A DNA stretch of 64,000 bases from Clostridia bacterium. GTDB lineage: Bacteria; Bacillota; Clostridia; Oscillospirales; CAG-272. The stretch covers positions 42,930-106,929 of the forward strand of contig JAFVTH010000018.1 in NCBI GenBank assembly GCA_017503285.1. The letters are read 5' to 3'. Shown piece after piece: positions 25,536-55,381 of this stretch. The notes beneath the pieces were generated by a model that ran no database searches, was not told where the DNA came from, and saw only the letters and a program-made list of their open reading frames with translations. Positions within the stretch are counted from its first letter, which is position 1. Every line of letters begins with the position of its first letter. Made by a program: the position numbers and the translations under genes.

Positions 25536-26153
25536 TTATACTACTAATAAAATGCTGAGGAGCAGCAAAATCTCTATTAAGAGTGGCAAGAAGGTCAAGA
25601 TGCCAGACCATATCTTCTCCCCTATTTTTTCCTTGCCCTTATACCTTTTTAGCGTGCCAACAAATGCTATTGCGCCAAGGGTTGTTGATGGAATGTAGAA
25701 AACAAGGGCAATTATTGCGCCAATTAATGCAAAAACAGCATAAATGGCGTTGCCAAGTCCGCTTAGGTCCACCTGTGCTTCCGGGTCCGGAACGGTTGTT
25801 AAAACATCAACCAAAAGAGGTATGAAAAACACCAAAAGCGCTATTGTTACAACGGCACAGATAATGGTGCTTATAATTTTATGTGCCTTGTAGCTCCTTG
25901 TCCTCTTTGAATAATCTATTTTCTGAATATTTTTTGCGGGTGCCGGGGCTTTTTCTTCGGTCTTTGGCTCTGCCTTAGCCTGTGACTTTGGTTCTACCTT
26001 GGGCTCTATCTTTTGTTTTGGCTTTGGTTCTGTCTTAGGTTCTACCTTAGCCTCTAGCTTTGGTTCTGCCTTAGGCTCTGTTTTGGGTTCAGCCTGTAGT
26101 CGTTGAGAGGCTTCCGGCTTTACCTCGGTAATTTTAATGTCGTTATTTTCCAT
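25536..26153 (-). CDS. Hypothetical membrane protein with EPK-repeat N-terminus
   Basis: GGAGG RBS before MENND; xEPK repeats then 3 hydrophobic segments. Confidence 0.75.
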   Translation of the reverse strand: MENNDIKITEVKPEASQRLQAEPKTEPKAEPKLEAKVEPKTEPKPKQKIEPKVEPKSQAKAEPKTEEKAPAPAKNIQKIDYSKRTRSYKAHKIISTIICAVVTIALLVFFIPLLVDVLTTVPDPEAQVDLSGLGNAIYAVFALIGAIIALVFYIPSTTLGAIAFVGTLKRYKGKEKIGEKIWSGILTFLPLLIEILLLLSILLVV

Positions 26154-32464: not shown

Positions 32465-33013
32465 ATGGAGCTATATGAAAAAAAGCTTTGCTCAAGACAA
32501 ATCTTTGACGGCAAGGTTGTAAAGCTTTATGTTGACACGGTAGAGCTACCAAACGGAAAAGAGGCTATACGTGAGATTGTGCGCCACCCCGGCGCTGTTT
32601 GCGTTGTTCCTGTTACAGACGACAATCAGGTGGTTATGGTGCGCCAATTTAGATATCCATTTAATGAGGTTTTGCTTGAAATCCCTGCCGGCAAGCTTGA
32701 AAAGGGCGAGGACCCGCTTGAGGCTGTAAAGCGTGAGCTTGAGGAGGAAAGCGGTGCTGTAGCCGGCAATATCCAACATATTGGCGAGCTTTATACTACT
32801 GTTGCTATTTTTGATGAAAAAATACAGATTTATCTTGCAACCGACCTAACCTTTAAGGACTCACATCCTGATGAGGATGAGTTTGTTGAGGTAACAAAAA
32901 TACCTCTTGACACTCTTGTTAATATGGTTATGAATGGGGAAATAAAGGACGCAAAAACCCAAATTGCCATACTTAAGGCTGATAGAATCTTAGCAACAAA
33001 ACATTCGAACTGA
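32465..33013 (+). CDS. nudF: NUDIX hydrolase, ADP-ribose pyrophosphatase-like
   Basis: REIVRHPGAV, QFRYP, EIPAGKLE...RELEEESG, DAKT. Confidence 0.85.
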   Translation: MELYEKKLCSRQIFDGKVVKLYVDTVELPNGKEAIREIVRHPGAVCVVPVTDDNQVVMVRQFRYPFNEVLLEIPAGKLEKGEDPLEAVKRELEEESGAVAGNIQHIGELYTTVAIFDEKIQIYLATDLTFKDSHPDEDEFVEVTKIPLDTLVNMVMNGEIKDAKTQIAILKADRILATKHSN

Positions 33014-33160
33014 ACTGTTTTCATCTCCGAGTGAATAAATCGGTAGAAAATCTTTTCGAGTTTTGTTGCAGTAAATTTAAAAATTTTCAATACAAAAGTC
33101 GGACAAAGGCTCGGCGATTTATCGCTCCGAGACAACTTAGTCCGAATCTTTTGTTGCTAG
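32991..33160. repeat. Inverted pair of ~80 bp hairpin units (MITE/REP-like)
   Basis: Ends TAGCAACAAAA / TTTTGTTGCTA; right half matches 51443-51523 in reverse complement. Confidence 0.75.
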
Positions 33161-33170
33161 GGGGCAGAAA

Positions 33171-34199
33171 ATGAATATTTTTGAAATAAAGAAAACAAAA
33201 ATGCTTGATGAGGCTACCTTTGGACACAAGCCGCAAAGCTTATTTATTGTTGTTCTTATCTTTATGCTGGTTTTCGCTATTGGCAGCGCTCTCCAAAGCC
33301 TGGTGGTTGCTATACCCTCTGCGGTTTATGCCGTAAACGCCTTGCTTTCTAACGAAGCCTTTCAGACGCTGATAGAGGGTGTTAGAAACGACACGGTAAC
33401 CAGCGAGGAATATGCGACCGCGCTGGAGCAGATTATGTCAGAGGTTGTAGCGGGCATTCCTGCTTGGATTTTCATCATTAGTCTTTTTGCAACCGTTGGC
33501 ACAATTGTGGCTGCCATCTTTTACTGCAAGAAATTTGAAAAAAGACCTATTTCCTCCTTGGGAATAAGAAAAAAGGGTGCTGTGGTTGAATATCTTTTGG
33601 GCGCAGGCATCGGCACTCTTATGATAGGTCTTGCTTATCTTATTGCTTATCTTACCGGCACTATTGATATTACTGTAAGCGAATATATAAGCCCTCTCAT
33701 TATTCTCTTTTTCCTTGGATATATAATCCAAGGTGCTTCAGAGGAGATTTTGGTGCGTGGCTACCTTATGGTATCCCTTGCAAGAGATACAAGGATTTTT
33801 GTGGCAATTATTTTGTCCTCTCTGTTCTTTGGTCTTATGCACCTTGGCAACCCTAATTTCGGACTTATTGCATTTATAAATATCATTCTCTTTGGTGTGT
33901 TCCTTGGCATTTACGTGTTCAAGCGCGGCAGCCTTTGGGGCGCTTGCGCTATACACACCATGTGGAATTTTGTACAGGGAAATGTTTTTGGCGTTAGCGT
34001 AAGCGGGCTTGGCATTATGCCATCATTCTTTACTACCACCGTTAGTGACAGCAAGGAATTTATAAGCGGCGGCGCATTTGGTCTTGAGGGCGGAATTGCC
34101 TCAACCTGTGTTTTACTGCTTGGTATACTTGTTGTTTTGCTTATTAAGACAAAGGAAAGCGAGGTTTCAGATTTTGAGCCTCAAATGAATATTTCTTGA
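33171..34199 (+). CDS. CPBP (CAAX/Abi) family intramembrane metalloprotease
   Basis: EEILVRG, FGLMH, HTMWN. Confidence 0.9.
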   Translation: MNIFEIKKTKMLDEATFGHKPQSLFIVVLIFMLVFAIGSALQSLVVAIPSAVYAVNALLSNEAFQTLIEGVRNDTVTSEEYATALEQIMSEVVAGIPAWIFIISLFATVGTIVAAIFYCKKFEKRPISSLGIRKKGAVVEYLLGAGIGTLMIGLAYLIAYLTGTIDITVSEYISPLIILFFLGYIIQGASEEILVRGYLMVSLARDTRIFVAIILSSLFFGLMHLGNPNFGLIAFINIILFGVFLGIYVFKRGSLWGACAIHTMWNFVQGNVFGVSVSGLGIMPSFFTTTVSDSKEFISGGAFGLEGGIASTCVLLLGILVVLLIKTKESEVSDFEPQMNIS

Positions 34200-49074: not shown

Positions 49075-49536
49075 CTATATTTTCTCGTAGGTGATTATAG
49101 TGTCGTTTGCGTGGCATTTGCCAAGCTTTTTTTCTTTGATTTTTATTTCCTCGCCGTTGGAGATAATAAGGGAGATAGTGGTATCGTAGCCCTTTTTTTC
49201 TATTTCCTCAAGCTCTACACGCAAAATAAGCTGACCTCTTTTTACCTTATCCCCCACGTCCGCCTTGGGAAAGAAATGCTTACCCTTTAATTCAACCGTG
49301 TCTATACCCACATGGACAAGCAGCTCTGCCCCGTCGCTTGACATTATGCTAAATGCGTGCTTAGACTCATGTAGGGTTATAATTTGACCATCAACAGGGG
49401 AAAATATGCTACCCTGTGTCGGTTTTATCCCAACTCCATCGCCTAAAAGTCCGCTTGAAAAAACCTCATCCTCAACGTCCCTTAGCTCAATTACCTCTCC
49501 GCTTGCTACTGTGCCTATTTCCTTATTCATATACAT
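49075..49536 (-). CDS. crr: PTS glucose-family EIIA component
   Basis: DEVFS..LLGDG, SPVDG, KHA, LVHVGIDTV. Confidence 0.9.
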   Translation of the reverse strand: MYMNKEIGTVASGEVIELRDVEDEVFSSGLLGDGVGIKPTQGSIFSPVDGQIITLHESKHAFSIMSSDGAELLVHVGIDTVELKGKHFFPKADVGDKVKRGQLILRVELEEIEKKGYDTTISLIISNGEEIKIKEKKLGKCHANDTIITYEKI

Positions 49537-51170
49537 TCACTTACCTTTCCTCTTATTCCTAAAAGATATGGTACAGATACAGAAAGCTCGTCAACGCCTA
49601 TTTTTGCAAGTGATTGTGTCAAGCTTAAATCTGCTGCCATTTCTCCGCAAACGCCGATCCAGCCACCCCTTTTGTGTATGGCATCCGTTGCCATTTTAAT
49701 AAGCCTTAAAACAGGCTCGGCATTTTCCTCGCAAATATGAGAAACGCTTGGATTTTGCCTATCGGTTGCCAAGGTATACTGACTTAGGTCATTTGTTCCC
49801 ACGGAGAAAAAGTCCACCTCCTTGGCAAGCTCCTCACTCATTATGGCGCTTGCCGGAGTTTCTATCATTATACCTATCTCTATTTTTTCATCAAAGCTTT
49901 CTTTTCTTTCCCTAAGCTCCCTCATTGCATCATTAATCAGCGCCTTGCACTCTCTTATCTCGCTAACTGACACAATCATAGGTATCATAACCGACACTCT
50001 GCCATAATAAGAGGCTCGCAAAATCGCCCTGAGCTGGGATTTGAACATTTCCTTGTCCCTAAGGCAAACTCTGACACCTCTTAAGCCAAGGGCAGGATTT
50101 TCCTCCTTGGGAATATTAAAATATGGCGCTTGCTTGTCAGCACCTATATCAAGGGTGCGAATTATAACCCTGCGCCCCTCCATTTTCTCGGCTATTTCCT
50201 TGTAGGAAAGAAAAAGCTCCTCTTCGGTCGGCAAAGATTTTTTTGACATATAAAGCATTTCACTTCTTAAAAGTCCTATCCCCTCCGCACCGTTGGAGAT
50301 TGCGCCGGATATTTCCCTTGAGCTTTCAATATTTGCATATATCATTATTTTGTAGCCGCTACGGGTCACGGCAGGCTTGTTCATTATAGAGCGCAGATAT
50401 CTTTCATGCTCCCTTGCTATCCTCTCCTCCTTGTCCCTTTGCTCTAAAAACCTGTCTTTTTCCTCGTTTGTTGGGTTTATTATAAGGGTCCCGTCAGAGG
50501 CATCTAAAAGCGCGTATGCACCGTCGTATACTTTATCTATTGCTCCTGTGCCGACAAGAGCAGGAATCCCCATTGCACGAGCAAGGATTGCGCTATGGGA
50601 GGATGATGAGCCACCAAAGGTTACAAAGCCTAAAATCTTGTCCTTCTCCAGCCTTGCAGTTTCTGTGGGGGTTAGGTCCACTGCCACTAAAATGTAAGGA
50701 GACGTGTCTATTTTTACATCCTTTTTCTCCTTTTCATCAAGAGATGAAAGCAGCTGCTCCTTTATATCTAAAATGTCGCTTGCTCTTTCGGAAAGGTATG
50801 GGTCGTCAAGTGATTTTAGCATATTTGAATATTCAAGACAGGCATATTCTATTGCGCCCTCACAGGAGCTACCTTTATCTATTTTTTCTAAAATAGCTTG
50901 ATTTAGATCCTCGTCATCAAGGAGCATACGATGGATTTCAAAAATCTCTGCCTCGTCCTTGCCTATTACTCTCCTTGTTCTTTCCTCTAAATCAATGAGC
51001 TGGTCTGTTGCCCTGCTTTTTGCTTTTCCAAAGCGTTCAAGCTCTCTTTCCGGGCTTGATGGCTTATCCTTATCTCCGATTGAACTTTTTTCCTTTTTAA
51101 TAAAATGCAGTCTTGCGCCAACCTTTAGACTTGTTACACCAACACCTCTTATTTTTTTAACCTCTTTCAT
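49527..51170 (-). CDS. ptsI: PTS enzyme I
   Basis: SHSAILAR, GIGLLRSE, RTLDIGADK, ENPALGLRG, SVGTNDL, CGE; start trimmed to MKEVKK. Confidence 0.93.
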   Translation of the reverse strand: MKEVKKIRGVGVTSLKVGARLHFIKKEKSSIGDKDKPSSPERELERFGKAKSRATDQLIDLEERTRRVIGKDEAEIFEIHRMLLDDEDLNQAILEKIDKGSSCEGAIEYACLEYSNMLKSLDDPYLSERASDILDIKEQLLSSLDEKEKKDVKIDTSPYILVAVDLTPTETARLEKDKILGFVTFGGSSSSHSAILARAMGIPALVGTGAIDKVYDGAYALLDASDGTLIINPTNEEKDRFLEQRDKEERIAREHERYLRSIMNKPAVTRSGYKIMIYANIESSREISGAISNGAEGIGLLRSEMLYMSKKSLPTEEELFLSYKEIAEKMEGRRVIIRTLDIGADKQAPYFNIPKEENPALGLRGVRVCLRDKEMFKSQLRAILRASYYGRVSVMIPMIVSVSEIRECKALINDAMRELRERKESFDEKIEIGIMIETPASAIMSEELAKEVDFFSVGTNDLSQYTLATDRQNPSVSHICEENAEPVLRLIKMATDAIHKRGGWIGVCGEMAADLSLTQSLAKIGVDELSVSVPYLLGIRGKVSECI

Positions 51171-51432
51171 TTTCCCCCAGCTTTTCCTTGCATACATTGT
51201 ATAGGGCGATTTTTGCCCTTTCCTCGTCATGACCCTCTATCTTAAAGGAAAGCTCTGTGTCGCACCTTGCCCCAAGCGCCATTATGGAAAGAAGCCTTTT
51301 TCCGTCTGCCACCTTTCCGTTTGCGCTTATTTCCACTCTTGACTCAAAGGTTTTTGAGGCAGCCGATATTGCCCCTGCCGGTCTTGCGTGTAAGCCGTTT
51401 TTGTCCTTTATAATAAATGTAAATTCCTTCAT
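51157..51432 (-). CDS. ptsH: HPr family phosphocarrier protein
   Basis: GLHARPA with His15; upstream of enzyme I. Confidence 0.9.
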   Translation of the reverse strand: MKEFTFIIKDKNGLHARPAGAISAASKTFESRVEISANGKVADGKRLLSIMALGARCDTELSFKIEGHDEERAKIALYNVCKEKLGENERG

Positions 51433-51442
51433 TTTCCCCTCG

Positions 51443-51523
51443 CTAGCAACAAAAGGCTCGGACTAAGTTGTCTTGGAGCGACAAATTGCTGAGTATTTGT
51501 CCGACTTTTGTTTTGAAAATTTT
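51443..51523 (-). repeat. Single copy of the ~80 bp hairpin element also at 33080-33160
   Basis: Shares ACAAAAGTCGGACAAA, TCGCTCC, AGACAACTTAGTCCGA and CTTTTGTTGCTAG. Confidence 0.85.
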
Positions 51524-51610
51524 ATATTACACTTATTATTTTGGCAGTATTTTCTCTTTTTATGCAAATAAAAAAGGGAAACAGCACACGCCGTTTCCCT
51601 TATATTTATT

Positions 51611-54496
51611 TTAGTCTTCCTTGCTTGTAGGAACGATATAGTCCATATGTGTTATATCATACAATTCATTATAAGATATGCCACTTGGATTTTTAATGGT
51701 TTCATTATCCTGTACATAGCTAATATCGCTACCATTTATAATATAGAAGCTCATAATATAGCTATTTTCAAGCATGGACTTTTGAATACCTGTAAGTTTA
51801 AGCTCATAATAAACAGAATCAGATGAGGTTAGATTAATCTTTCTAACGCCGGTCTCTGCACTGCCATCAGCCTTAAGCGGTGTGTTTGTGCCAAGTCTGT
51901 CCTTAAGAGCAACAACCATACCAATTTCAAAGGTTGTTCCCTTTGTGCTGATAAAGTTGCTTATAGCATCACGGTCTATTTCGTATCTTGTTGCCACACC
52001 GTAGCTATCAGCACCCTGCTGTGTTGAGAAGCCAAGGCAGGAAAGAAGCGGTCTTTGTGTAGGAACGCTCTCGTCAATATCCTCGTGGCAGAAGTCACAA
52101 TCATAAACGCCGATGCCAAAATTTGTGTAGCCGTTATCGTATCTGATATCGACAAGCACATTCAAGCCGTGGGCGCTCTTTGGTGTAACAACCTTAACAA
52201 CCTCAACAACGTCATAGGTTGTGCTATTTGTAACCTTTCCCTTAAACAGCTTATAAATTGCGTCCTTAACCTCTCCACATGGGCAGTCGGTTTCGTAGTA
52301 TGTTCCACCCTCGGTTGTACAGCTTGCATCCACTGTTTTTACAGTATAAGCGTGCTTAATGCCGTAGTGGATTTGGTAGTTTGTGCATTCATTAAACGCA
52401 CTGCCGTTTTCTGTTTTTGCAACTGTATACAAGGAAAGGTTTGTATTTTTCTTAAAGCCGTTATTTCCAACGGAAAGCGTGTCTGCGTGGTGGTATACCT
52501 TAGCATTTTGCGCTATGCTTTCAAAGGCAGAGTCGCCAATGCTGTTGATTTCCATAAGCACGATGGTGTGAAGCTTGGAGTTTCCATAGAAGGTTGAGTT
52601 TGCAATTTTTGTAATGCCTTTACCTATATATAACTCCTCAACACCGGCCTCATAAAAGGCAGCAACCTCAGCAAATGTTACATTTGCGCCGTCTGGGAAA
52701 ATAAGCTTTTTAATATTTGTTTTCTTAAAGCTATCCTGTCCGAAGGTATATTTACTACCCGATGACAGATTAAGGGCAGAAACATTTGCAATGCCGGTAA
52801 AGGCTTCCTTTTTAAAGTTGATATCTGCGCCCTCAACATTTGAATTGATTGTCTTTAAGGTTGATGGGGCACATTTTGCATTGAAGGTAACTGTTGCTTT
52901 TTTAACTGTTATTGTTTCAAGAGAGGTTAGCTTTGTTAGGCTTTCAATTGTAACAATTGCGCCGTCGTCAATTATAATCTCCTTAACATTAGCGCGATTT
53001 GTGCCAAAGTTAACACTAACAACACCCATCGGGATTATGATTGTGTCAATAGAGTCAACACTATACCCGCCAAACGCCTTAATATCTGTAACGCTGTAGC
53101 CTTTTGAAGTTTCGGTCAAGGCAAACAGCTCCTTAATAGCTGCCTCCACAGTTTCCTTTTGTCCGGAGCCATTAATGATTACAACGCTTATTGTATCGGT
53201 TGATGGGTCATATAGTAAAACCCTGTACTCTGCGCTTTTGCAGGTCTTGCAAATGTATTTTTCCCAGCCAAGCTCAGTTTTTGTAGCCAATTTCTTTTCA
53301 GAAAATTCATAATCATGTGTGCCAAACTCGCCGTATCTGAAGGACACCTCATGTGAACAATGCTCACAGGTGTAAATCTCCTCAGAAATGTTACCGCAGC
53401 TTGCATTGGTCTTAGCTGTTAGCTTATAAGAATGTGCCTCTTGATTACAATCCTTAGGCACAACTGTTTTATAAGCTACGCCACCAATAGTAAAGTCCAT
53501 TAGCTTATAAGTCGCAAAATCTATTGTTGTGCTAAGGGCTATTTGGTCCTCGCCCTCAATTGAAAAGTTACCGCCTGTGATTGTAAACACGGTCTTTTCA
53601 TCACGGAAAAAGCTATATGTAGAGTTGGTCATTATAATAGAACCACCTCTAATATTTGCTTTAATAGTAATGCCGCTTGTGGTTTGATTTGTAAAGCGGC
53701 TGTTGACAACAAGCAAGCCACCGTCGTTGACCTCTAGGCGAGGCGAGCATGGTGAATTATGCCCAAGCTGCATTGCAATATTACATGTGGCCTTGCCATA
53801 AATTTGTAGCCAAGGATAACCCTGTGAAACATAACCGTTGTTATCGTGAATCAAAATTGAATTCGGTGCGTCAACAATAACATCTCTACCAATAAACAAA
53901 ACACAGCAGTCACCACCCCAGCCATGGTTTCTTGCAAGAAGAAACTCATTTGTGCCGTTGTATGTAACCTTGCCTGTACCATAAAACTTAATACCTGTTC
54001 TGTCGCCACCGAAGGCAGTGTTATTGCCTGTAATATTTATATTATGTCCGTTAAGCAAAACTGTAGCAACGTCCCAGTTTTTCGTGGTAACCCTGCCGGC
54101 GCCCTCAATATCCTTTATAAGTCTGATTGGAGTTGCGTCACCAGCGCAGGTTTTAAATGTATTAAAGTCCGAAACGTCAAGCGCAACAATTTGGCGAAGG
54201 TTTGTATCTTCATTAAGGATAACCTCGGTGCCACCCTCCCAGGCACGACCGTCATCGGTGTACCAGTTAAAGGAATAGCCCTGCTCTACCTCTTTTGTAG
54301 GTAGCTTATATGGCACGCCTGCTTGAATTTCAACCTTACCCTTTTCTCCAAAGCTTTCATCGATCGAGCTATCTTTATAGAAGGTAAGATTTATTTCAAG
54401 GGCAAAGCATGATATTGCAAAAAGCATAATCAGCATTGCTACCATAGAAAGCGTAATTAAAATTTTAGTCTTAGTTTTTATCATAACGCACCCCAT
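51611..54496 (-). CDS. Secreted BspA-type leucine-rich-repeat protein
   Basis: Signal peptide (AISCFA), IGDSAF/IANSTF LRR units, His/CxxC modules; start could be 54484. Confidence 0.82.
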   Translation of the reverse strand: MGCVMIKTKTKILITLSMVAMLIMLFAISCFALEINLTFYKDSSIDESFGEKGKVEIQAGVPYKLPTKEVEQGYSFNWYTDDGRAWEGGTEVILNEDTNLRQIVALDVSDFNTFKTCAGDATPIRLIKDIEGAGRVTTKNWDVATVLLNGHNINITGNNTAFGGDRTGIKFYGTGKVTYNGTNEFLLARNHGWGGDCCVLFIGRDVIVDAPNSILIHDNNGYVSQGYPWLQIYGKATCNIAMQLGHNSPCSPRLEVNDGGLLVVNSRFTNQTTSGITIKANIRGGSIIMTNSTYSFFRDEKTVFTITGGNFSIEGEDQIALSTTIDFATYKLMDFTIGGVAYKTVVPKDCNQEAHSYKLTAKTNASCGNISEEIYTCEHCSHEVSFRYGEFGTHDYEFSEKKLATKTELGWEKYICKTCKSAEYRVLLYDPSTDTISVVIINGSGQKETVEAAIKELFALTETSKGYSVTDIKAFGGYSVDSIDTIIIPMGVVSVNFGTNRANVKEIIIDDGAIVTIESLTKLTSLETITVKKATVTFNAKCAPSTLKTINSNVEGADINFKKEAFTGIANVSALNLSSGSKYTFGQDSFKKTNIKKLIFPDGANVTFAEVAAFYEAGVEELYIGKGITKIANSTFYGNSKLHTIVLMEINSIGDSAFESIAQNAKVYHHADTLSVGNNGFKKNTNLSLYTVAKTENGSAFNECTNYQIHYGIKHAYTVKTVDASCTTEGGTYYETDCPCGEVKDAIYKLFKGKVTNSTTYDVVEVVKVVTPKSAHGLNVLVDIRYDNGYTNFGIGVYDCDFCHEDIDESVPTQRPLLSCLGFSTQQGADSYGVATRYEIDRDAISNFISTKGTTFEIGMVVALKDRLGTNTPLKADGSAETGVRKINLTSSDSVYYELKLTGIQKSMLENSYIMSFYIINGSDISYVQDNETIKNPSGISYNELYDITHMDYIVPTSKED

Positions 54497-54710: not shown

Positions 54711-55355
54711 GCGTACCGAACGCTTTGACGCTCAATGCTCAATTGGAAGTCAGAACCGAAAAAGACAAGGCGTACCGAGCATTTTGAGGCTTTAGAAGCA
54801 AGTGATTCAAGGCGCACCGAACGGTTTGACGCTCAAGGCTCAATTGGAAGTCAGAACCGAAAAGGACAAAGTGTGCCGAACGGTTCGACGCTCAAGAAGC
54901 AAGAAAGACAAGGCGCACCACAGGTTGAGGGCGCAGGCATACCTTTTGTATGTCAAGGTTTCTCGCGAACCCCCTAAAAAGCCACACTTTTTTGGGGAAC
55001 CCCTCAGCACCGAGGAGCAACGACAAAGCACGAAGCTTATCAAAGCCTCAATTGGAAGTTAGAACCGAAAAAGACAAGGTGTACCGCAGATGTCGGACGA
55101 AGGCTATCTTACGATAGTCGAGGTCTCTCGCGAACCCCCTAAAAAGCCACGCTTTTTTGGGGAACCCCTCAGCACCGAGGAACAACGATGTATTTTGAAG
55201 ATTATCACTTTCAATGTTTGAGACTTTAGAAGCAAGAAAGACAAGGCGCACCGAACGGTTTGACGCTCAAGAAGCAAGAAAGACAAGGCGCACCACAGGT
55301 TGAGGGCGCAGGCATACCTTTTGTATGTCAAGGTCTCAACCGAGGAGCAACGCAG
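54711..55355. repeat. Modular intergenic repeat mosaic (REP/MITE-like)
   Basis: Eight copies of a CAAGGYGYACC-like core plus five recurring modules of 15-45 bp. Confidence 0.9.
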
Positions 55356-55381
55356 TATCTCGCAGCTTATTGTGTGTCAAA

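Follow-up and report, generated by a model that had tools for sequence, protein, structure and literature searches.

A probable new family of transposable elements at the nudF/CPBP junction

The subject of this work is a hairpin-forming element lying between nudF, which encodes a NUDIX hydrolase, and the gene for an Rce1-like (CPBP) protease in a stretch of 64,000 nt from a Clostridia bacterium (assembly GCA_017503285.1, contig JAFVTH010000018.1, positions 42,930 to 106,929), hereafter called the window. We conclude, with a probability of roughly 0.87, that the element is a copy of a non-autonomous DNA transposon, that is, a MITE (miniature inverted-repeat transposable element), belonging to a previously undescribed family. 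As read from the junction sequences, the element inserts at a TA dinucleotide, which is left on both sides. The family is, as far as searched, confined to one genus of uncultured gut Clostridia, and represents a new family within a common and familiar class of elements. According to PMC2229807, most bacterial MITEs are shorter than 200 bp and have terminal inverted repeats, terminal 5'-TA-3' and target duplications; their transcripts form long stem-loops, and fusion to open reading frames (ORFs), in frame, is possible. The small size and non-coding nature of the element, its inverted ends, the flanking TA, the dispersed copies in both orientations and the patchy occurrence fit these published properties.

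A first-pass annotation of the window had offered two readings of the feature, a new MITE/REP family that remodels gene ends or a cis-regulatory RNA acting at the ribosome-binding site. The MITE reading is the one that held: the orthologous junctions are empty, the TA is duplicated, the ends are inverted, copies occur in both orientations and the C-terminus of nudF is remodelled. The same annotation had named the way to decide between its readings, namely to look for copies elsewhere, their orientation and empty-site orthologues; this gave eight copies in both orientations and three empty junctions, a result that points to a MITE.

Insertion at TA in three orthologous junctions

In the related genome G005 the nudF/CPBP junction (locus L077) is free of the element and reads ...AAGATTT-TA-GGTGGTAGAAAATGAAC, with a single TA, and the junction of the window reads ...AGAATCT-TA-[GCAACAAAAC...CTTTTGTTGC]-TA-GGGGGCAGAAAATGAAT, with the element in square brackets. 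The junction of a second relative, G045, is also empty, but has TG at the insertion spot. By this comparison, 165 nt entered the nudF/CPBP junction at one TA that now stands on both sides, as the left copy at 32991..32992 and the right copy at 33158..33159. In both relatives the nudF stop overlaps the ATG of the CPBP gene as ATGA, and the NudF proteins end in ...KILGGRK* (G005) and ...RILEGRR* (G045), versus ...RILATKHSN* in the window. Judging from these termini, the insertion cost nudF (32465..33013, forward strand, PF00293) its last four codons, gave it the six-residue tail ATKHSN with a new stop, and separated it by 157 nt from the formerly overlapping ATG of the CPBP gene (33171-34199, forward strand, PF02517). 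That the element supplies the last codons and the TGA stop of nudF had been noticed in the first reading of the sequence, and it is borne out for the last six codons and the TGA. The native Shine-Dalgarno sequence (GGGGG) and the ATG of the CPBP gene (33160..33173, forward strand) are flank and not element; the same GGTGGTAGAAAATGAAC is present at the empty G005 junction, and both signals were left untouched, because the insertion point lies just 5' of them.

The second junction is the leader of ptsH, which encodes HPr (51157..51432, reverse strand, PF00381; ATG at 51432) and is followed by ptsI (49527-51230, reverse strand, PF02896, PF05524 and PF00391). The empty leaders of G047, G005 and G045 consist of a terminator and a -10-like box followed by ...TGTAAAAATTTTGA-TA-GAGGAATAAAAAATG (...GA-TA), the TA of G045 standing before AAGG. 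The leader in the window reads TGTAATA-TA-[AAATTTTCAAAAC...TTTTGTTGC]-TA-GCGAGGGGAAAATG, the copy being a short form of 77 nt at 51446..51522 on the reverse strand, with its flanking TA at 51444-51445 and 51523-51524. A consensus scan predicted a promoter-like site, CTGCCA-17-TAAAAT, at 51519..51547 on the reverse strand, and the relatives have TGTAAAAAT or TATAAA boxes at the corresponding place. The copy thus lies between a -10-like box and the Shine-Dalgarno sequence, and since the predicted -10 box extends over the TA and the element's first bases, transcription would place the element within the 5' untranslated region of ptsH-ptsI. A bovine metatranscriptome run (X1, 0.16 of the sampled words) gave contigs over parts of ptsI and the upstream surface-protein gene, not over 51015-51822.

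The third junction, the spacer between metY and metA, is empty in G005 (...AAAAATA-TA-AAGGAG) and likewise empty with a single TA in G047; in the window genome it reads ...AAAACA-TA-[GAAATTTTCAAC...CTTTGCTGA]-TA-AAGGAG. The spacer of G045 is empty with no obvious matching TA. Duplication of the target was thus observed at three orthologous junctions by comparison with G005, and in addition with G047 at ptsH and metA.

Two other junctions contributed no such evidence. The copy between two M42 peptidase genes was excluded, as removal of the element and one TA would fuse the two genes in frame; this copy, 77% identical to the window copy, is older and probably came with, or then had, other changes. 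The neighbourhood of the copy at glxK is not conserved in G005 or G045 and gave no orthologous site.

The metY-metA spacer was also seen in two other genomes. A contig of G051 (L154, G051:C31:23300-24900), about 97% identical in this region, has the same insertion with the canonical end ...TTTGTTGC-TA, yet the HPr of G051 is only 55% identical to that of the window; the G051 bin may be mixed, or the metY-metA region may have been exchanged. At the metA insertion spot of G042 (L085, G042:C9) there is only an 11-nt string, TAGCCTTACGG, directly before the Shine-Dalgarno sequence. It equals the first 11 nt of the end of a 278-bp form of the element described below, and may be what is left of a copy or the footprint of an excision. 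Of the 12 end-pattern matches in G042, 11 lie on the forward strand, and most are one-ended fragments.

Copies and forms of the element in the window genome

The element was noticed because 33080-33160 closely matches the reverse complement of 51443-51523. This near-match was confirmed by an inverted-repeat search, in which 33080-33175 and the reverse complement of 51428-51523 matched over 96 nt with 86% complementarity, and by BLAST of 33075-33175 against the assembly, in which the second copy was found with E=3.7e-27, so that the pair is not due to chance. Both window copies terminate in TTGTTGCTAG exactly 10 nt ahead of an ATG, as originally reported, and the Pfam matches PF02517 and PF00381 support the two genes concerned as those for the CPBP protease and HPr.

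The assembly of the window genome comprises 1.5 Mb in 32 contigs and is estimated to be 74.7% complete. By BLAST and an nhmmer profile, eight dispersed copies were found on seven contigs with E values from 1e-47 to 2e-8, besides the degenerate inverted left part of the window element, and these are 76-92% identical to the window copy. Two of the eight are long: the copy before the CPBP gene and a second one at G000:C23:35578-35737 (79%). Five consist of the right-hand unit alone and share the left border TA|AAAATTTTC. The remaining copy, on contig C12, is short and also without the 3' arm of the hairpin.

The long form in the window (32993..33157, forward strand, 165 nt, ends GCAACAAAAC... and ...CTTTTGTTGC) is supported by its inverted ends, its fold and the second long copy. 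It is composed of two inverted hairpin units and can be written TA|GCAACAAAAG...CTTTTGTTGC|TA. The left unit (32993..33071, forward strand), a diverged inverted copy of the right unit, encodes the A-T-K-H-S-N tail and the TGA of nudF at 32993-33013. The right unit (33080..33157, forward strand), preceded by an internal TA at 33078-33079, is the short form, which occurs alone at six other sites of the assembly. As an independent element of about 77-80 nt, the short form reads TA|AAAATTTTCAAT-ACAAAAGTCGGAC...GTCCGAATCTTTTGT-TGC|TA, and the right part of the window long form corresponds to the 77-nt copy before ptsH. ORFs over the window copy are short, overlapping and on both strands.

The initial description gave each copy the fold ACAAAAG-TCGGAC...GTCCGA-CTTTTGT. 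The CPBP-side copy folds in this way, with a minimum free energy of -28.7 kcal/mol as RNA (z -3.6) and Watson-Crick pairing in 21 of 21 stem pairs of the right unit; the hairpin of the ptsH copy is more degenerate and decayed (z -1.5). The whole of 32985-33180 folds as RNA into one long hairpin (-59.9 kcal/mol, z -6.0), and the long form folded as DNA gives two tandem hairpins.

Five copies of the window genome are in sense orientation just ahead of the starts of the genes for the CPBP protease, HPr, an MFS-like protein, MetA and glycerate kinase. Three are antisense, with the other border facing the start, at the genes for a YgjV-like protein, a DUF6472 protein and an M42 peptidase; the last of these also forms the 3' end of the upstream M42 gene, contributing its final 15 codons and its stop. 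With one further copy each in G024 (at a PemK/MazF gene) and G063 (at a Flg_new gene), ten copies of what we call the window subfamily were examined. Relative to the adjoining gene, 6 of the 10 are sense (including that of G024) and 4 are antisense (including that of G063), and the adjoining genes are functionally unrelated.

Behind the second long copy, the MFS-like gene (L004:1592-2880, G000:C23) passes from frame 0 to frame 2 after about 76 codons; either the gene is frameshifted or a pseudogene, or the assembly is in error here.

Distribution among relatives and the 278-bp form

Among 40 related genomes, matches were found in 7 of the 24 of the same genus and in 0 of the 16 from other families of the order. 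Extended to 50 genomes of the genus, the search showed that 14 carry the family and that 10 carry ends of the 278-bp type. The element is thus present in multiple dispersed copies with a patchy distribution, as is characteristic of MITEs. A scan of all species-representative genomes for the core pattern gave 45 loci, against about 17 expected by chance; 38 are true copies and 7 have the pattern only. All 38 true copies are in bins of uncultured Clostridia, Oscillospiraceae or Eubacteriales, whose records name goat and deer gut. A scan of metagenome contigs for the ends gave one further copy of 279 bp, and scans of viral contigs gave two pattern-only matches and no match, respectively.

In four congeners (G007, G003, G014 and G017) the homologue lies about 60 nt from contig ends, and these sequences are nearly identical to each other. 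Such matches made us suspect a larger multicopy element, and their position is as would be expected of a multicopy repeat breaking a short-read assembly. We considered whether they mark the terminus of a large insertion sequence, in which MRKQVGLQ... might be where a gene starts, and rejected this, for internal copies proved to be a 278-bp MITE and the ORF is stopped in most copies: of the 12 copies read, 9 have a stop that interrupts the sole ORF within this form. Terminal inverted repeats of 27 bp and 96-100% identity (TAGCCTTACGGGAATCGAACCC... and TAGCCTTACGGGAATCGAACC...) delimit the 278-bp form, which is always bordered by TA and in some congeners is present in copies 92-100% alike. It differs from the window subfamily mainly at the ends (GCCTTACGGGAATCGAAC versus GCAACAAAAGATTCGGAC in the latter).

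This form also bears on the left half of the window element, which the first-pass annotation had called a degenerate inverted copy of the right half. The inverted arms are real, 32991-33018 pairing with 33132-33159 over 28 nt with 82% complementarity. The description is incomplete in that positions 23-145 of a 170-base query (window 32991-33160) are collinear with the right approximately 150 nt of the 278-bp element, the left hairpin unit aligning with its internal ...CATCTCCGAGCGAATAAATC...TTTTCGAGCTTTGG...; because of this collinear alignment, we regard the "degenerate inverted copy" as homologous to internal sequence of the larger form. Terminal inverted repeats, as MITEs have them, are therefore seen both in the long form (28 nt, 82%) and in the 278-bp form (27 bp, 96-100%), and at 77-80, 165 and 278 bp all forms are non-coding and within the size of bacterial MITEs (under about 300 bp).

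Some copies of the 278-bp type are about 322 bp long (L033, L018, L128, G056:C120:22301-22622 and G056:C114:3565-3886). After ...GAATAAATC they have an inner, hairpin-forming stretch of about 44-51 nt (taggggttccccgaacc...ggtttggggg...), which might be another, yet smaller element lying within the 278-bp form. In L043:1490-1767 (also L046, L045 and L083) the 27-bp repeats resemble the 3' part of a tRNA, with a T-arm (GGGTTCGATTCCC), seven acceptor-like bases and TA, and the two ends of the form can pair like an acceptor stem. A tRNA-derived element was considered; ARAGORN finds no tRNA at the 278-bp ends, and the end pattern was not found in the window's assembly.

With regard to novelty, no known Rfam family was matched: at the gathering threshold the only match in the whole window was a tRNA, and with E up to 10 the region 32900-33250 gave only noise from miRNA models (E >=0.55). 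A search of the full-text literature for the end and core strings returned 13 matches, all to unrelated primers or oligonucleotides. The newness of the family was judged on these two comparisons. A 2024 preprint (10.1101/2024.01.18.576219) reportedly surveys MITEs across prokaryotes, and its catalogue might already list this family.

Search for a transposase and evidence that weighs against a MITE

Several observations weigh against the conclusion that the element is a MITE. Firstly, the left terminus of the short form is no mirror of its right terminus, the matching ACAAAAGTCGGAC beginning 13 nt inside the border. Secondly, a TA duplication cannot be told apart formally from the insertion, after a TA, of an element that itself ends in TA. 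Thirdly, an alignment of the eight short copies gave a stem covariation of 0.255 versus 0.182 in shuffled alignments, and 0 of 500 shuffles reached 0.255; since the stem pairs covary, arm complementarity is maintained by something. In this alignment 87.4% of the stem cells are paired, and 6 of the 21 pairs are changed on both sides. Lastly, no transposase with matching ends was found. The TA target duplication of a MITE dependent on an IS630/Tc1-mariner transposase (RUP type) is present. DDE_3 is the domain of IS630-type transposases, which make TA duplications, and no IS630 partner was found, DDE_3 (PF13358) being detected in 0 of the 50 genomes of the genus; the control search with PF13358 was positive in 5 of 14 known genomes. 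DDE_Tnp_1 (PF01609) and DDE_Tnp_4 (PF13359) were each found in none of the five copy-rich genomes, and the rve-domain loci of four of these five showed no similarity to the element ends. The scans of metagenome and viral contigs for the ends, which returned the 279-bp copy or chance matches, uncovered no transposase. The search for a transposase with matching ends that had been suggested at the outset accordingly found none among DDE_3, DDE_Tnp_1, DDE_Tnp_4, rve and Y1 loci and in the contig scans. Metagenome bins often lose insertion sequences, and for this reason a missing transposase is a weak negative and a partner may exist.

Two of these observations, the asymmetric termini of the short form and the covarying arms of each hairpin unit, are also what one would expect of a different mobile element, one of the REPIN/REP-like or IS200/IS605-type palindromic kind (PATE), which a Y1 (HUH) transposase recognising the hairpin moves as a single-stranded DNA hairpin. 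The outer stem occurs in the compensated variants AAAAG/CTTTT, AAAGG/CCTTT and AAGGG/CCCTT, which suggest, as far as the alignment tells, that arm complementarity mattered while the element was spreading. Y1_Tnp genes are present in 18 of the 50 genomes of the genus, including 8 of the 14 element carriers, and the window's assembly has a weak RAYT-like match. We consider such an origin improbable. TA stands on both sides of every well-preserved copy, and the perfect 27-bp terminal inverted repeats of the 278-bp form start at the TA; such features belong to DDE transposition and not to that of IS200/IS605 elements or REPs. The element has no similarity to the six IS200-type loci of the genus, and 6 of the 14 element-carrying genomes show no Y1 gene. 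Repeats flanking a cognate Y1 gene without a target duplication, as is typical of REP/REPIN systems, were not observed; the repeat that follows the RAYT-like gene of the window genome (G000:C31:3954-4340) is another one, a GC-rich hairpin (GTAGGGGCGGATTCC...) present in about 10 copies, and the REP part of the original suggestion is not sustained.

For the MITE, the following history may be proposed. A DDE-type transposase supplied in trans, and absent from the bins searched, would have moved the element by cut-and-paste. One insertion split nudF from the CPBP gene as described above; a second brought an imperfect hairpin into the ptsH leader, where it lies between the -10-like box and the Shine-Dalgarno sequence. 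The copies of the window genome are old and probably immobile, because they are only 76-92% identical to the window copy, and the 278-bp copies of some congeners, with their 92-100% identity, may have been active recently. Present copies would be passengers co-transcribed with neighbouring genes.

A cis-regulatory leader RNA is very improbable

The other suggestion of the first-pass annotation was a cis-regulatory RNA acting at the ribosome-binding site. Such an RNA would be a riboswitch-like or protein-binding leader through which translation of the downstream gene is controlled at this site. The position 10 nt before the ATG of two genes and the stable hairpin of the CPBP-side copy agree with this, and in both window copies a 5' AUUUUC can pair with the GAAAAU at the start codon. 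We nevertheless regard a leader RNA as very improbable, as the remaining evidence runs the other way. Such an RNA should have a fixed sense orientation and be conserved at orthologous genes; instead, with 6 copies sense and 4 antisense to the adjoining gene, the orientation is mixed, the same leaders in the nearest species are without the element, and one copy lies inside a coding 3' end. The genes that would be regulated are functionally unrelated, and Rfam gave no match either at the gathering threshold or with E up to 10.

The mismatches in the stem point in the same direction. Among the non-Watson-Crick stem cells of the eight aligned short copies there are 12 G.U versus 14 A.C; taken copy by copy on the strand that is transcribed, most are A.C, so that no bias of G.U over A.C is seen on that strand. 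Mismatches of this kind are as expected of a DNA palindrome that decays neutrally and not of an RNA under selection.

Position of the element next to start codons

In 8 of the 10 copies of the window subfamily one border of the element adjoins the 5' side of the Shine-Dalgarno sequence, at 11-13 nt from a start codon, and in the other two the distance is at most about 28 nt. The 278-bp subfamily of the congeners differs, only 2 of 50 distinct end-flanks having a Shine-Dalgarno sequence and start codon within 27 nt; this count was restricted to ORFs of 60 codons or more and to a simple Shine-Dalgarno pattern. The target sides of the window subfamily are TA|GGGGG, TA|GCGAGGGG, TA|GGACGG, TA|AAGGAG, TA|GGAGTG and TA|GAGGTG. 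The position at start codons could come from a target preference for TA followed by a purine-rich run, from survivorship or from selection for an effect on the mRNA.

It is possible, albeit unlikely, that the copies are MITEs by origin but have been kept for an effect on expression, a stable hairpin just ahead of the Shine-Dalgarno sequence, or just behind the upstream cistron, serving as mRNA stabiliser, processing site or modulator of translation initiation, or that the transposase targets TA beside purine-rich Shine-Dalgarno sequences. The border distances, their rarity in the 278-bp subfamily, the purine-rich target sides and the maintained complementarity of the stem all speak for this, and regulation of neighbouring mRNAs through MITE stem-loops is described for Correia/NEMIS, ERIC and YPAL in PMC2229807. 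On the other hand, the insertions are species-specific and not conserved. Both orientations occur, which means that no single RNA is presented to the ribosome; the stem mismatches in the mRNA sense are mostly the disruptive A.C rather than G.U, and the fold of the ptsH copy is poor. The position could be a matter of survivorship alone, since in a compact genome the only copies to withstand deletion are those caught between a stop codon and the Shine-Dalgarno sequence that follows. A more far-reaching version of the idea is equally tentative, namely that the MITE specifically lands on, or is selectively kept at, a TA just 5' of the Shine-Dalgarno sequence in either orientation and so sets a stable hairpin beside the translation starts of unrelated genes. 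It would then serve as a movable unit by which overlapping genes are uncoupled and mRNA stability or the initiation of translation is adjusted.

Comparison with known elements

The MITE reading can be set against several known families. RUP, a 107-bp MITE of Streptococcus pneumoniae, has been tied to IS630-Spn1 by end similarity and TA targets (PMC2229807). Like RUP as described there, the element studied here belongs to a Firmicute and is of about 100 bp, non-coding, intergenic and present in many copies, with terminal inverted repeats and TA insertion. The ends of RUP match a resident IS630 element, whereas no IS630-type transposase was found in the 50 genomes here; moreover, the new family has long, short and 278-bp forms of nested hairpin units, and the likeness to RUP meant here is one of properties.

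The Correia/NEMIS elements of Neisseria (107 and 155 bp) share, according to PMC2229807, a terminal TA, TA duplication, inverted repeats (there of 24 bp) and the existence of long and short forms; they too adjoin genes, are co-transcribed, form stem-loops in mRNA and can be fused in frame to ORFs. Their RNA has been proposed in the same text to affect neighbouring mRNAs via RNase III. Correia elements are described with an IHF site and an RNA that RNase III cuts, and they differ from the present element in host phylum and sequence.

REP/BIME sequences and the RAYT-mobilised REPINs are likewise short intergenic palindromes, sometimes in inverted pairs, and are able to stabilise upstream mRNA. 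They are without target duplication or long terminal inverted repeats and cluster round a RAYT gene, in contrast to the TA on both sides of the present element and the 27-bp inverted repeats of its 278-bp form. With the Rickettsia palindromic elements (RPE), ERIC and YPAL the element shares the donation of codons to host genes, here the last 6 of nudF and the last 15 of an M42 peptidase gene. RPEs enter genes in frame and are translated over their full length, whereas this element replaces only C-terminal tails and stops.

Small mobile repeats of this type explain differing operon junctions between close species, odd C-terminal tails and breaks in short-read assemblies of uncultured gut Clostridia. 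The family provides clean, dated examples of an insertion that splits two translationally coupled genes and of a hairpin added to the leader of a central sugar-uptake operon (ptsH-ptsI). Should the position beside ribosome-binding sites be due to targeting or selection, this family would lend itself to the study of how expression is rewired by MITEs.

Other repeats in the window genome

Other repeats came to light in the course of the analysis. The RAYT-like gene mentioned above (G000:C31:3954-4340), which lies outside the window, is an ORF of 176 codons that matches Y1_Tnp weakly. Behind it are GC-rich hairpins (GTAGGGGCGGATTCCATATCC...), found about 10 times across the assembly; together with the ORF they make a candidate REP/RAYT pair, separate from the element of this work. 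The window has a block of direct repeats at 54711-55370, with units of 91-110 nt at spacings of 101, 165 and 375 nt (families D2-D6). A 14-mer related to these, CAAGAAAGACAAGG, has 8 occurrences in the assembly and is also found beside the RAYT-like gene. At 25949-26104 there are ten overlapping copies with a 12-nt period (CTTTGGnTCTGn-like), which are probably a repetitive coding stretch on the minus strand.

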